Assembly (NCBI GenBank): GCA_045863235.1
Contig: BTUM01000106.1
Coordinates: 1 to 24,124 of the forward strand
DNA length: 24,124 nucleotides
From: Candidatus Xenobia bacterium
Lineage (GTDB): Bacteria; Vulcanimicrobiota; Xenobia; Xenobiales; QWHO01
Reading direction: 5' to 3'
The notes beneath the pieces were generated by a model that was not told where the DNA came from, searched no databases, and saw only the letters and a list, made by a program, of their open reading frames with translations. The stretch's first letter is position 1; each line of letters begins with the position of its first letter. The translations under genes and the position numbers were made by a program. Shown here piece after piece: positions 5,114 to 20,885 of this stretch.

Positions 5114-5281
5114 GCTGACCTCCTTGCATGGTGGACGGGGTACCTTCGGCTGAGAGGGCACAACCCCCTGGAGCCGGTAGCGGGTATCAGCGACCCGGCC
5201 AGCAGGCCCGCTTCAAGAACACCCGAGTCCATCGACCGGGTCGCGAAGGTCGGGCCGAGGGCATGGCGAAGCCCGCCTGGC

Positions 5282-5857
5282 GTGCCCACCATTGTGTTTC
5301 TTGCGGGCCCGAACGGCGCCGGCAAGACGACCTCGGCGCCTCGGCTGCTGCGCCACGAGTTCGAAGTCGTGGAATACGTCAATGCAGACGTGATCGCTTC
5401 GGGCATCTCGGCATTCAACCCTGAGAGCGCTGCGCTCGAGGCAGGTCGGGTTCTGCTTGCGCGAACCCGCGCTCTGGCCTCAAGACGAGTGAGCTTCTCG
5501 GTCGAAACGACGCTGAGCGGGCGTGCCTACGCGCCATGGCTGAAGCGGCTCATCAGCAGCGGATACGAGTTTTCGCTGCTGTTTCTCTCACTCCCATCCG
5601 AGGAGATGGCCGTGGCCAGGGTCGCCCAGAGAGTGAAGTTGGGCGGCCACGACATCCCCGAGGGGGTCGTTCGGCGACGATTCAGGGCCGGGCTGCGGCA
5701 CTTCTTCGAGCTCTATCAGCCGATCGCCGGTCGCTGGTGCTTTTATGACAACGCGGGCGACGCGCCCAGGCCCCTGGCGCACGGCTCGCGGTTGGCTGTG
5801 CAGTGTGTTCTTGACGAGAGCTCGTGGGGAGGTATTCTGAGAGCATGGAGCCGGTAG
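5282..5857 (+). CDS. Zeta-toxin-like P-loop ATPase/kinase (COG4185-type)
   Basis: Walker A GPNGAGKTT, plus YVNAD, ETTLSG, RVAQRVKLGGHDIPE and YDN. Start uncertain (GTG at 5282). Confidence 0.88.
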   Translation: MPTIVFLAGPNGAGKTTSAPRLLRHEFEVVEYVNADVIASGISAFNPESAALEAGRVLLARTRALASRRVSFSVETTLSGRAYAPWLKRLISSGYEFSLLFLSLPSEEMAVARVAQRVKLGGHDIPEGVVRRRFRAGLRHFFELYQPIAGRWCFYDNAGDAPRPLAHGSRLAVQCVLDESSWGGILRAWSR

Positions 5858-13784: not shown

Positions 13785-14015
13785 TCAGGCAAATGTGGGC
13801 ATGTCGACCAGGCCGGAGCCGCAACATGCCGCGCAGGAACGACGACCACTTCCCTGGCAGTCGGCACAGGGAATTTTTTTCTTCCCTCGACAATCAGGGC
13901 AGTCCGGGCTCTGCTCGCGGGCACAGCGGGGGCAGACAATCTCAGTCGCACCCTGGCAGCGCTCACAGGTCCGTTGGCCGGTCCCCGAGCAGAACTTACA
14001 GAGAATCGTCGTCAA
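13785..14015 (-). CDS. Small stand-alone DnaJ-type zinc-finger protein (six CxxC motifs)
   Basis: CKFCSGTG, CERCQG, CPRC, CPDCRG, CADCQGSG and CAACCGSG; its TTG start overlaps the hpf TGA stop; GAGGA upstream. Confidence 0.8.
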   Translation of the reverse strand: MTTILCKFCSGTGQRTCERCQGATEIVCPRCAREQSPDCPDCRGKKKIPCADCQGSGRRSCAACCGSGLVDMPTFA

Positions 14016-14575
14016 TCGTTTTCTTCCTCGGTGCGAGGGTCGATCAGGCCATAGCCCCGCTCACGCTTGTAGATCACGTTGATCCGGGCGTTCGAGCTGT
14101 TGAGGAAGGTGAAGAAATTGTGTCCGTGGGCTTCGAGCTCTTTGATGGCCTCATCGATCGTCATCGGGGCGGCCTGGAAACGGTAGGTGTGCTCGATGCG
14201 AGGCGCATAGGCAGGGCCATTCTTGTTGCCGGGCCGTTCGCTGGGACGCGCCTCGGCTTCACCGCTCCCCTCGTGGCTATCGGTGGTGCGGCGCGCGATG
14301 GCTTTGCCCTTCTGTTTCTTGAGCTGGCGCTCGAGCTTCTCGAGCACCCGGTCAACCGAGTTGTACATGTCCTTCGTGCGCTCTTCCCCACGCATGTCGA
14401 ACCCTTTGCCGTGCATCGTGACTTCGACGATATGCCAGTTGCGCTCGGTGGTCATGGTGACATCGGCGGAGAGAACCGAGGCGTCGTGGCGGGCAACTTT
14501 GCCCACCCGCTCGGATGCGTAGTTCTTGAGCGCTTCGGTGACGTCGAAGTTCTTGCCCTTGACAGTGATCTGCAC
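14012..14575 (-). CDS. hpf: Ribosome hibernation promoting factor, long form (HPF/RaiA)
   Basis: Motifs QITVKGKNFDVTEALKNY, DMYNSVD..KLERQLKK and C-terminal PMTIDEAI...NVIYKR..YGLIDP; AAAGGAGG RBS before GTG 14575. Confidence 0.95.
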   Translation of the reverse strand: MQITVKGKNFDVTEALKNYASERVGKVARHDASVLSADVTMTTERNWHIVEVTMHGKGFDMRGEERTKDMYNSVDRVLEKLERQLKKQKGKAIARRTTDSHEGSGEAEARPSERPGNKNGPAYAPRIEHTYRFQAAPMTIDEAIKELEAHGHNFFTFLNSSNARINVIYKRERGYGLIDPRTEEEND

Positions 14576-14865
14576 TCGCAAGCCTCCTTTTGGCAGGGGT
14601 GTGATGGGGAGACAGATCTCCCAACGGAGGTGTATCCGCGATCCATTTTCGGGGCCGCTTTCCTCGACCCTGCCTGACCGGTCAAAGTGAAGCGTGCAGT
14701 CATCTGCGCCGACAGCTTGGAAAGAAGGCGCCCTGGAAGGATCGCCAAACCTCGAAGAGGACTTTTCATCATCCTGCGCTCTACAGATTCTCTCGATGAG
14801 AGCAAAAAAGTGTGGAACTCTCAAGTTCTTTTTGATAGCATGAGGCTACCGAAAAGTTCCCACTG

Positions 14866-16857
14866 ATGCTCGAGTCGACTTGCCCAGAACTCTTCAGCTC
14901 GATTCCCGCCCTGCGCCTGGAGCTGAGTCCCCAGCTAGCCGCGTTTGGCGCTGACCTTGCACGCCGCTTCGAGGCTCTGGCGGAGAGGCTGGCCCACGAG
15001 TGCCAGGCCCCGGTTCCCCCTCCCGAAGCCGTCGAGGCCACCTGGCTGAAGCCGAATACCTACCGGATTCTGGTCGGGGGAGCTCTGCGAGCGGTCGGGA
15101 CCGCCTACCCCGGTCGCCTGCTGGCCGTGGGTGACCTGCGCGGCCTGAAGGGCATTGCCGACCTGGACCCCATTCGAGCTCTGCCGGCGGCCTGGATCGA
15201 CCGCCGCCGGCGAGCCTCAGCCGAGAGTCGGGGGGCCCTGCTCTCCGAGCCGGCCGACCTGGTGCTGCGCCACGTCGAGCGCACCTTGCGCCAGGTGCTC
15301 AACGAGCGCGCTCATATGAGCCGGGTTTTCCACCAGGTGGCTCGCCTGGCCAACCGCAACCCCAACCTGGTGCAGCGGGCCACCCGTCGGGTGGGCCGCG
15401 AAGTGCTGTTGGTCTCGCTGGCAAGCCTCGAGAGCGAGGCGATCGTTTGCCGCGATCTGGCTCCCCTGCTCGATCGGGTTGCCAGCGCCGCCCCCCTGCG
15501 CTGCACGGCCCTCGAATGTATCGAGTGGTTGCGCAGCCGCTTGCGCAGCCAGATCTCCAGTGAGTATGCCCAGCAAGGTGTGCTCGAATGCGTGACTCTG
15601 GAGCCCGATCTGCAGCAATGGCTCTGGTGTCGCGCCTGGCAGGGTCGCCTCAGCCTGCTCGACCCGCCCGTGCGCAAGATTCTCGCCTGCCTGCGCGAGC
15701 AGGGACGACCTGTAACCCTGCTGGTGCTGCCCTACCTCAGACCCATCCTGAGCGCACTCTTGCGGCCCTATCTCGATGGCTTGCGGGTTCTCAAGACCGA
15801 TGAGCTCGAGCCGGGCACCCAGCTGTCGGTGCTGGCCAGCGTGCCGCTCGGGCTGCGGCGCTGGCAGCTTCCCTGGCAGCTGTGGAGGCAGGGGAAGTTG
15901 CGCCGCAAAGTCTTGCGCGAGCAACTGGAGGACTACGCTCGCCTTTCACGGGCGGGCAACGGGCCGCTCGTGCGCCCGGAGGCGGCGCCGGAGCCCGAAG
16001 TGACCGTTCCCCTGCGCCTGTCGGGCGCTCAAACTGCGGCGGTCTTCCTGCTCGAGTGCCCCACATGGCTGCTGCGCGAGGTACTGACGCGCCTGCCGGC
16101 CCGGGAAGTACACCGACTGGCTCAGGAGATGAGCCGGATGGGGCGCCAGAGCCTGCTGTATCGCGATCAAGTTCTGGAGAGCTTTCCCGGGCTCAACGCC
16201 GATAGCTCCGACCCGGTAGCCATCACCGCCCACCTGCGACGCCTCCTGACGGGAAGCGTGGCCGGCCCGGTGCGCGAGCTGGCCATCTCCCTTTTGGCGC
16301 TGGGCTCCGGCTATGGACCGGTGGCTCGCAAAGTTTTTGCCCGCCTGCCGGCCGAGACGGCCGAGCTGGTTCGAGCTGAGGTGGCCGAATTGCGAGGCCA
16401 GCAGAGTCTGTCTTTTCTGCCCACCCTCAACCGTTTCGCCGCCTTCTATCGCGGCGAGCGAGCCCACCTGGGAGTGCTTCCCGGCCCTGTCGTCAAGGAT
16501 TGGCTGCATGCCGCGGTGTTGCGCGACCCGGCCGGCATGGCTCGAGCCTTGCTGACCACCTGGTTGACGCCCACTCTGGATGCTTATCGCCACTGGGCGG
16601 CCGCCGACCCGGTGCGCACCGCTCGCTGGCTGTTCCGCTGGTGGCAGCATGGCCCCACCGGCGCGCAGGATCCGATCTGCCAGGCTCGCGCGGCTCTGCA
16701 ATGCCTGGACGCCGAGGTGGCCCACATGCTGAGCGCTTACCTCAGCCAGGAAACCTGGGAAGAGCTCACCCGCGGGCCGGCCGACGAAGACTGGGTATCC
16801 AGCGCGTCTCTCTGGCTCGCTTCGGGCACGCGGGCCTTCAGCCAGGCCCGGAACTGA
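14866..16857 (+). CDS. Divergent FlhA/FHIPEP cytoplasmic domain fused to FliG-N-like and FliF-C-like segments
   Basis: aa ~15-326 follow the FlhA-C motif order (LRLEL, LKPNTYRI, PGRLLA, DP..LPAAWI, NPNLV, E.I..RDL..LL, VTLEPDL, P.LR..L..LL...L.VL..EL). aa 385-440 (LSGAQTAAVFLL...EMSRM...RDQVLESF) resemble FliG-N. No TM segments. Confidence 0.75.
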   Translation: MLESTCPELFSSIPALRLELSPQLAAFGADLARRFEALAERLAHECQAPVPPPEAVEATWLKPNTYRILVGGALRAVGTAYPGRLLAVGDLRGLKGIADLDPIRALPAAWIDRRRRASAESRGALLSEPADLVLRHVERTLRQVLNERAHMSRVFHQVARLANRNPNLVQRATRRVGREVLLVSLASLESEAIVCRDLAPLLDRVASAAPLRCTALECIEWLRSRLRSQISSEYAQQGVLECVTLEPDLQQWLWCRAWQGRLSLLDPPVRKILACLREQGRPVTLLVLPYLRPILSALLRPYLDGLRVLKTDELEPGTQLSVLASVPLGLRRWQLPWQLWRQGKLRRKVLREQLEDYARLSRAGNGPLVRPEAAPEPEVTVPLRLSGAQTAAVFLLECPTWLLREVLTRLPAREVHRLAQEMSRMGRQSLLYRDQVLESFPGLNADSSDPVAITAHLRRLLTGSVAGPVRELAISLLALGSGYGPVARKVFARLPAETAELVRAEVAELRGQQSLSFLPTLNRFAAFYRGERAHLGVLPGPVVKDWLHAAVLRDPAGMARALLTTWLTPTLDAYRHWAAADPVRTARWLFRWWQHGPTGAQDPICQARAALQCLDAEVAHMLSAYLSQETWEELTRGPADEDWVSSASLWLASGTRAFSQARN

Positions 16858-16903: not shown

Positions 16904-17653
16904 TTAGCGCCCCCAGGCCTTCTTGACCTTGACCACGTAGCGCTGCGTTTCGGCGAAGGGAGGCACGCCGCCGGCCCGCTCCACGTTGCCGGGACCCGCG
17001 TTGTAAGCTGCAATGGCCAGAGTCCAGTCCCCGAAGCGGTCCTTCATCTGGCGCAGATACTTGGCGCCAGCTTCGATGTTCTGCTCGGGGTCGAACCGAT
17101 CGCGGCAACCCAGGTGGTAGGCCGTGCCGGGCATCAGCTGCATCAATCCCCCGGCTCCGGCGTTGGAGACGGCGTAGGGCTTGAAGGCCGACTCCACCTC
17201 GATGACGGCGCGAATCAGCCTGGGGTCGAGGTCATACTTGCGCGCTTTGGCCAGGATGATGGGAGTGATATCCACGGTCTCCACCGCTTTACGGGAGACT
17301 TCCTTGTAGCCCACCACCCGGTTCTGGGCGGGCGCGGCCGCGCCGCGGCTGGCCAGCGAACGGCGCTGGTGACTGTAGACGGGCACCTTCACCTTGCGGC
17401 TCACCTGGACCTTGACCATGATGGGGGGCAGGTCACCCTGGACCACTTCCTCCTTGGCCGGAGCGGCCTTGGTGCGGATCAGGCCGAGATTCTCGAGTTC
17501 TTCGGTGGAGAGCCGGAACAGGCCCGCCGGCTCTTCAGCAGGCACCAGGCTGCCCGAGATCCCCTCGCCGGGCACTTCGGGCGACTGGGCGGCGGCGCCG
17601 GTCCACAACATGCAGCTCAGCGTCAGAGCTGCGAAAGTTCGCATGATCTTCAT
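16904..17653 (-). CDS. Secreted lytic transglycosylase (SLT domain)
   Basis: Signal peptide; AVIEVESAF, GAGGLMQLMPGTA, AAYNAGPG and ETQRYV; GGAGG RBS before ATG 17653. Confidence 0.95.
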   Translation of the reverse strand: MKIMRTFAALTLSCMLWTGAAAQSPEVPGEGISGSLVPAEEPAGLFRLSTEELENLGLIRTKAAPAKEEVVQGDLPPIMVKVQVSRKVKVPVYSHQRRSLASRGAAAPAQNRVVGYKEVSRKAVETVDITPIILAKARKYDLDPRLIRAVIEVESAFKPYAVSNAGAGGLMQLMPGTAYHLGCRDRFDPEQNIEAGAKYLRQMKDRFGDWTLAIAAYNAGPGNVERAGGVPPFAETQRYVVKVKKAWGR

Positions 17654-20441: not shown

Positions 20442-20885
20442 TCAGGCCAGGGCGGCAGCCGGGATGGCCGGCGGGGGGCACTGCTCGCGCAGCCAGGAAA
20501 GGAACTCCTCCGGCTCGGCGTCGGCCCAGCGGGTCAGCCGGCTCAAGTTTTCATCCAGGTTCGAGCCCGCCTGCTTCTTGAGCTCGGCGGGCAGGCGCGA
20601 AACGGCGAAGCGCACCACCGGCTTGACCAGGTTGCGCCCGTTGCCCTTGATGGTCGAGCCGGCCTCGATGTAGCCCGAGCGGACCTCGGCCGGCAGGGCC
20701 AGCAGCAGGCGCGACGTGGTGCCGGGGGGCAGCAGGGTGATCAGTACCCAGCCCCGCTGGGCCGCGCTGAGCTGGCCGAAGCCGGTGGACACGGCCGCCA
20801 GCTCGCGGATGCGTATGAACTGCATGACGGCCACCAGCGGAGCCAGCAGACCGATGACCTGCCACCATTCCAGACGGTCAAACAT
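20442..20885 (-). CDS. Hypothetical membrane-anchored protein with a FliG-N-like segment
   Basis: N-terminal hydrophobic helix; LSAAQRGWVLITLLPPGTTSRLLLALP; TGATG overlap with the upstream gene. Confidence 0.7.
   Translation of the reverse strand: MFDRLEWWQVIGLLAPLVAVMQFIRIRELAAVSTGFGQLSAAQRGWVLITLLPPGTTSRLLLALPAEVRSGYIEAGSTIKGNGRNLVKPVVRFAVSRLPAELKKQAGSNLDENLSRLTRWADAEPEEFLSWLREQCPPPAIPAAALA

Follow-up and report, generated by a model that had tools for sequence, protein, structure and literature searches.

What does a piece of the flagellar export gate do when it is fused to pieces of the rotor and encoded among housekeeping genes? The question is raised by an open reading frame (ORF) at 14866..16857 (+) of contig BTUM01000106.1 from a Candidatus Xenobia bacterium (Vulcanimicrobiota; assembly GCA_045863235.1, host genome G000 in our sample), and the window analysed here is this whole contig of 24,124 nucleotides (G000:C106). 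The 663-residue product, P0001 hereafter, is a soluble chain in which the cytoplasmic domain of FlhA (FlhA-C) is followed by a triple cassette of FliG-N-like repeats and FliF-tail sequence. In type III systems, FlhA-C and the FliF-FliG junction count among the best-conserved elements, normally present once per machine and in separate proteins. P0001 is real and is built from known parts in a new combination; its mechanism is what we infer below.

An export-gate domain joined to rotor-like repeats

An initial annotation of the window had described an intact frame of 663 codons with an N-terminal FlhA-C domain, and both points were confirmed. Pfam matches residues 27-317 to FHIPEP (E 8.5e-28, above the curated cut-off), covering profile positions 349-655 of 657 only; positions 1-348 have no Pfam counterpart in P0001. 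Residues 30-325 match FlhA-C in PDB by sequence (E 1e-16), and Foldseek matches an AlphaFold model of P0001, with a predicted local distance difference test score (pLDDT) of 76, to FlhA-C (E 2.6e-18). In this model the FlhA-C fold is complete over residues 11-330, where pLDDT is mostly 80-95. With the NCBIfam FlhA model TIGR01398 the protein reaches 89 bits, where the cut-off is 772. We place the FlhA cytoplasmic domain at residues 15-326 (14908..15843, +), without the transmembrane/FHIPEP part. The highest 19-residue hydropathy in P0001 is 1.31, therefore the protein has no membrane helix, and the annotation was also right that a membrane region would not fit upstream: the stop-to-stop frame spans only 672 codons and the start of the divergent hpf gene (14575) is 290 base pairs away. 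The linker that follows (residues 327-383; 15844..16014, +) is predicted to form helices at 329-340 and 344-363 before a Pro-rich stretch, with pLDDT below 50 at 365-383. With FlhA and SctV (PF00771, TIGR01398; PDB 3a5i, 6ch1, 7amy, 3mix) P0001 thus shares fold and motif order over residues 15-326, at about 25% identity. It differs from them in that the membrane/FHIPEP part is missing, the linker is unconserved, R391, K392, F459 and T490 are replaced, the domain is joined to FliG-like repeats, and the gene, one of five paralogs of this kind in G000, is not part of the export operon.

In the C-terminal half the annotation had seen one FliG-N-like segment and FliF-C-like modules. The segment is there, since Pfam FliG_N matches residues 385-442 (E 1.9e-8, above the curated cut-off), but the count is three rather than one. 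A family alignment of 16 rows was compared, profile to profile (hhalign), with FliG (22 rows) and FliF tails (27), both drawn from this phylum. Repeat 1 (residues 384-442; 16015..16191, +) scored 98.0% to FliG-N, repeat 2 (466-532; 16261..16461, +) 95.9% to FliG-N and 94.5% to repeat 1, and repeat 3 (603-655; 16672..16830, +; compared as residues 598-660) 91.7% over 30 columns. All three map onto FliG residues 5-64. Structural comparison (VIA-align) matched repeat 1 to 5wuj_B (Z 7.2, root-mean-square deviation (rmsd) 3.5, 69 aligned) and 5tdy_D (Z 6.4, rmsd 3.6, 65 aligned).

As to the FliF-like modules, a reading with three FliF tails had to be cut to one clear copy, one weak and one unsupported. 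The clear copy, at residues 545-569 (16498..16572, +), scored 92.9% to the 27-FliF-tail profile against 0.8% to the FliG EHPQ helix pair, with three control segments each below 2%. A second helix-Pro-helix motif at residues 572-591 (16579..16638, +) scored a non-significant 7% to FliF tails and is possibly a worn tail. The helix after repeat 1 (residues 448-462; 16207..16251, +) scored 0.5% to FliF tails and aligns with the FliG helix past the N-domain core; it may be a worn tail of the FliF kind or the helix that comes next in FliG-N itself. A single-sequence hidden Markov model (HMM) scan with FliF tails did not match P0001, and only the family profile was matched.

The remaining structural evidence is modest. 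With a model of the C-terminal half (pLDDT 79), FliG chains were the top 8 of 48,161 representatives (3hjl: Z 8.2, rmsd 14.5, 157 aligned), Z values that are modest for a helical protein and that we weighed only together with the sequence evidence. Foldseek with the same model returned no match at E <=0.001, its top six rows being FliG or C-ring entries. Residues 542-659 also align to the FliG-M chain 4fq0_D (Z 5.4, rmsd 2.8, 75 aligned), a likeness to be expected of a co-folded unit. Neither PF14841 (FliG-M, EHPQ) nor PF01706 (FliG-C, torque) matched P0001 in Pfam at E <=1, and Pfam and hydropathy found neither the membrane helices of FliF (two in that protein) nor its periplasmic ring domains. 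Prediction of a complex between the C-terminal half and the FliF tail of the host's export system (see below) gave 0.02 and 0.00 against a mark of 0.32, which speaks neither for nor against binding. An Atlas search with this half gave scores below 0.9, a lead only, and a search for longer proteins carrying it returned 6 known family members only, which is weak evidence on its range.

FliG-N co-folds with the FliF tail, according to PMC6079021. P0001 resembles the FliF-C:FliG-N complexes (PDB 5tdy, 5wuj) in its FliG-N fold and its FliF-tail copy; it departs from them in having three repeats in one soluble chain and in the permuted order, FliG-N before FliF tail. The FliF-FliG fusion of PMC6079021 joins a full FliF to a full FliG, whereas P0001 has neither the FliF membrane ring nor the FliG torque domain. 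P0001 is therefore a member of neither FlhA, FliG nor FliF as such.

Distribution, selection and paralogs

Relatives were sought in a phylum sample of 121 genomes from 19 families, with scoring limited to the 9 best candidates of each genome, so that orthologs may be missed. Full-length orthologs were found in 11 genomes from 6 families, and none of the 11 has internal stops. Both Pfam domains are present in nine of 19 database matches, which cover 89-100% of the query and are 34-95% identical to it, and within the family the architecture persists at 17-21% identity. The triple cassette is more widespread (25 genomes, 11 families), and was not found in families f12, f13, f14 and f18 (0/72 genomes). 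FlhA-C shares the ORF in 24 of the 28 cassette hits and is absent from three, and the one other hit is broken up by an assembly gap; a membrane helix is predicted in nine of the 28 and in none of the 11 orthologs.

The ratio of non-synonymous to synonymous substitution rates (dN/dS) of P0001 is 0.114 against G042 (662 codons; 49 non-synonymous and 135 synonymous differences) and 0.218 against G050. Values are alike in both halves (0.10-0.22) and within the range of nine neighbour genes (0.02-0.17 and 0.12-0.44). With purifying selection and orthologs free of stops, P0001 is neither decaying nor a chimera; misassembly and a pseudogene were considered and ruled out on these grounds and by the full-length relatives. 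The initial annotation had named a missing profile match, decay or a chimera as the outcomes that would undo its reading, and the Pfam and Foldseek matches, the dN/dS values and the 11 orthologs point the other way in each case. Parts of the ORF also appear, with few differences or none, in contigs from four RNA libraries of four studies; DNA carry-over is possible and these contigs were not counted as expression.

P0001 is not the sole protein of its kind. Six FHIPEP genes of G000 pass the cut-off: a single full flhA and five, that of P0001 among them, that lack the membrane domain. A seventh hit (C24, 21 bits) falls short of the cut-off, encodes a membrane protein and was discarded. One paralog of 750 residues (G000:C107:13658-15910; L010:8662-10911), also present in G042 and G050, consists of a FliG-N/FliF-tail unit, a predicted membrane helix, a partial FlhA-C and then the triple cassette. 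The three further membrane-domain-less paralogs (L013:9635-10897, L011:8016-9437, L012:8977-10257) include one with an FlhB-C-like domain. Up to 12 FHIPEP matches occur per genome, and P0026, P0034, P0052 and P0073 are other membrane-less FlhA-C fusions among the hits, in which tandem FlhA-C domains and long repeat-like extensions were recognised by eye.

A probable flagellum-derived export machine in the host

The initial annotation had noted no other flagellar gene on the contig, and genome-wide FHIPEP, FliG_N and rod-family searches indeed place none there. It had proposed to survey whether the genome also has canonical flhA, fliG and fliF. All three are present in a flagellar-type export/basal-body operon elsewhere in G000 (G000:C27:60720-79363; L008:15724-18977 and L009:89-14363), which ends with the sole full flhA and reads flgB-flgC-fliE-fliF-(extra FliG-like gene)-fliG-fliH-fliI-fliJ-SLT-fliK-rod/hook-like-fliM-fliN-fliN-fliP-fliQ-flhB-flhA. 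Syntenic counterparts of the operon occur in G002, G012 and G056, and it is not the locus of the true flagellum; G000:C74 carries a rod-binding protein, a sigma factor and two further rod genes. Flagellin, MotA, MotB and FlgD were not found in G000 (97.6% complete), and FlgK gave no match over the cut-off. C74 stops downstream of the rod genes, which may be an assembly gap for G000 alone. The missing flagellin and stator are not only such a gap. Across the order, 7 of 34 genomes have flagellin, the same 7 have MotA, and in each of them a second flhA adjoins motA; in family f2 both were found in 0/17 genomes. Identity to the C27 FlhA is 43% for the second FlhA of G056 and 83% for the syntenic copy there, and the two FlhA types, system and flagellar, separate in a 56-row tree. 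At the positions of Salmonella FliG R281 and R297, which we take to be torque residues, system FliG has D/E in 20/20 rows and no basic residue in 19/19, respectively; flagellar FliG keeps both in 2/2.

Accordingly, the idea of a flagellum-derived machine gains ground: the sole export operon of G000 looks filament-less and stator-less. Judged as a rotating flagellum, the C27 system has the rod/junction genes and the export core, and is without flagellin, hook cap, hook-filament junction, MotA/MotB and the FliG torque charges. Judged as an injectisome, it has flgB, flgC and fliE, which injectisomes lack, and the rule of PMC3459982 would class it as a flagellum because these three are kept. No SctC secretin was seen among the scanned operon ORFs, and no genome-wide secretin search was made. 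Downstream of flhA, in the region G000:C27:54348-57051, lie three genes for an identical 81-residue protein (L008:10990-12052) that has 9 matches in G000, matches in 44/121 genomes and no Pfam hit. Its Atlas look-alikes (0.91 and 0.90) fall in clusters where 23-24% of the members carry HrpA_pilin, a lead only. A 533-residue Gly/Pro-rich protein from the same region (L008:9352-10950) shares its C-terminal motif, and both are candidate filament subunits or substrates.

Judging from gene content, Vulcanimicrobiota appear to have a second, filament-less and motor-less secretion machine made from flagellar parts. Buchnera has reportedly retained flagellar export and basal-body genes while losing flagellin. 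In Lysobacter enzymogenes OH11, flagellar export and basal-body genes are likewise retained without flagellin (PMC7688988). The C27 system resembles both in keeping export and basal-body genes without flagellin. It differs from them in forming a slow-evolving clade of its own that coexists with true flagella within the same genomes, in having no FlgD (a protein secreted by Lysobacter), and in its multi-copy 81-residue pilin candidates and soluble gate paralogs. The secretin-less non-flagellar type III system of Myxococcales is, according to PMC3459982, a motility-less flagellum derivative thought to translocate proteins. It is alike in this respect; as described there it has no FlgBCDEK, FliE or FliG, whereas the C27 system keeps FlgB, FlgC, FliE, FliG, FliM and rod proteins and therefore looks independent and less reduced. 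The sole cultured member of the phylum has no flagella and no flagellin gene, according to PMC9758169. In the supplement rows compared, PMC9259500 lists T3SS_sctV hits together with partial-coverage Flg_sctV hits as 'no_decision' and takes the genes as flagellar. A literature search that covered few subscription papers turned up nothing on this family of fusions or on type III systems without flagellin in the phylum.

Two further observations concern such loci elsewhere. Extra full-length FliF-like genes (28-34% identity) lie off the main fliF contig at G050:C25, G056:C2, G046:C23, G074:C105, G044:C10 and G032:C41 (L108), and f14/f18 genomes such as G010 (L074-L075) have a more divergent flhA operon, often with the sole flhA of a flagellin-less genome.

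Possible roles and origin of P0001

The filament-less machine is the likely partner of P0001, because flagellin and MotA are both missing in six of the 11 ortholog genomes (G000, G042, G072, G076, G086 and G080); five have flagellin, and ten have a full-length flhA. For each of the 11 orthologs the mean score is higher with system FlhA-C than with flagellar FlhA-C, and the best tree groups them with the former (support 52/98). This 24-row tree left out the four other G000 paralogs and f14/f18 FlhA and does not settle ancestry; a 56-row tree went through the quick stage only and carries long-branch warnings. A hint on the cassette comes from the extra FliG-like gene that follows fliF and precedes fliG in the C27 operon (G000:C27:75357-76223; L009:10360-11223), which encodes FliG-N with a terminal FliF-tail-like motif (6.5 bits) and was seen, among the fliF loci examined, only in the three f1 genomes. 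It is the product expected from a duplication of the fliF/fliG junction, and the permuted FliG-N to FliF-tail unit likely arose by tandem duplication of that gene junction.

We tentatively favor, at a little under even confidence and from sequence comparisons, a role for P0001 as an accessory of the filament-less, stator-less machine, one that would dock at the FliF-FliG junction and modulate the gate. Docking at the junction is preferred because it is the cassette that varies less across the wider family. The repeats would fold as FliG-N/FliF-tail units, giving an arc of the inner C-ring in a single chain, and could dock on the basal body either by taking a FliF tail into a free groove or through side-by-side FliG-N contacts. 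The FlhA-C copy, predicted to be chaperone-blind, would sit beside the true gate and tune or damp export; it may compete for the gate partners FliJ, FlhB-C and neighboring FlhA-C while loading no substrates itself.

Several observations weigh against this role. The gene is unlinked to the operon and stands among housekeeping genes. The cassette was not found in 96/121 genomes, though an FlhA-family match is present in 116/121, and must therefore be dispensable. P0001 FlhA-C changes about 9x faster than system FlhA-C (dN 0.199 vs 0.021), a rate that sits poorly with tight binding to a near-invariant gate. Were all three grooves filled in cis, no site would be left for FliF to bind; for repeats 1 and 3, no tail reaches statistical support. 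Neither flhA nor fliF turned up at full length in G072, a genome 85% complete. Finally, descent of the orthologs from flagellar FlhA is not rejected by the approximately unbiased test (p-AU 0.086), and the similarity scores are biased by how slowly system FlhA evolves.

The initial annotation had pictured a soluble ring scaffold. That the protein is soluble, under selection and made of export-gate and rotor parts holds; the ring itself fares worse. A bioRxiv preprint is said to deal with FlhA R391. In Salmonella, according to PMC5916509, ring formation and the binding of FliJ and of chaperones depend on the FlhA linker and R391/K392/K393, FlhA-C is a monomer when in solution, and the chaperone dimple is made up of D456/F459/T490; the linker contact is also described in PMC8213127. 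P0001 has A39/E40/R41 at the first three positions and D101 (kept), R104 and R135 at the dimple. Over 16 family rows, close relatives included, D456 is D/E in 16/16, F459 is aromatic in 9/16 and R391 is kept in 5/16, which, with the complete fold, would suit a free cytosolic nonamer staging chaperone-substrate complexes ahead of the gate. R391 is lost in the other 11/16, K392 is basic in 2/16, T490 occurs in 0/16 (5/5 in full FlhA rows), and the N-terminal stretch and linker are unconserved, so that a free nonamer or chaperone dock is doubtful: as a chaperone-docking nonamer P0001 is unlikely, and the staging ring as a whole strikes us as improbable.

Other explanations do without a ring. P0001 may have been repurposed away from export, with FlhA-C and FliG/FliF folds serving as generic interaction modules elsewhere; the scattered location, long branches, lost functional residues and the many other FlhA-C fusions (duplicated FlhA-C, long N- and C-terminal extensions by eye, an FlhB-C fusion) suit this, yet every recognisable part stems from the same machine, the halves stay together in 24/28 cassette hits and all but one of the ortholog genomes have a full-length flhA, and we consider it unlikely. 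A long-lived, nearly functionless duplicate, its fold kept by weak selection in paralog-rich genomes, would account for the many FHIPEP matches, the patchy presence and the faster change than system FlhA; it is highly improbable in view of a dN/dS of 0.114 that lies within the neighbor range, the absence of internal stops and an architecture kept at 17-21% identity. We give scant credence to a regulator of the true flagellum, or a decoy exported into other bacteria to jam flagellar export. Flagellin in five ortholog genomes and a flagellar ancestry that is not rejected would fit, as would the proposal, in PMC9259500, that relatives of the host are predators; no flagellin or MotA was found in the other six, G000 included, and a 663-residue multi-domain protein with worn binding sites would be a poor mimic.

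The accessory role could also belong to a larger picture, possible but hardly probable, of an independent passage from flagellum to injectisome-like machine. Rod, FliF and FliG/M/N would have been kept and stator and flagellin lost, the 81-residue HrpA-like pilin would form the filament, and interchangeable soluble gate/ring paralogs would program the machine, with P0001 as a single-chain FliF-FliG arc bearing a gate-domain module. If the system does secrete through its own pilin, it would be a second living intermediate between flagellum and injectisome. In any case, a selected, lineage-wide fusion without membrane anchor suggests a form of regulation undescribed in flagella or injectisomes, and draws attention to a non-rotating flagellum derivative kept beside true flagella. 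Soluble proteins of this family can be tested in vitro though the host is uncultured.

Within the window, P0001 is surrounded by unrelated housekeeping genes. It is flanked by the divergent hpf (S30AE family; 14012..14575, -), in the same place in G042, G050, G072 and G086, and by a convergent lytic transglycosylase gene (SLT; 16904..17653, -), in the same place in these four and G076; the order hpf - P0001 gene - SLT is conserved in f1 and f2. Upstream of the start, the non-coding stretch 14800-14865 is near-identical in G000, G042 and G050, the G050 protein being 73% identical, and has no obvious ribosome-binding site; it is possibly a shared promoter for the P0001 gene or hpf. A 147-residue orphan ORF (20442-20885, -) with an N-terminal hydrophobic stretch is conserved in f1 (dN/dS 0.11 vs G042); its FliG-like appearance was by eye only, was backed by no Pfam, HMM or BLAST match, and was set aside. 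An AAA_33/Zeta-toxin-like ATPase gene (5219-5857, +) lies on the opposite strand between hslU and a preT/preA-like dihydropyrimidine dehydrogenase pair and is possibly a toxin-antitoxin insertion.

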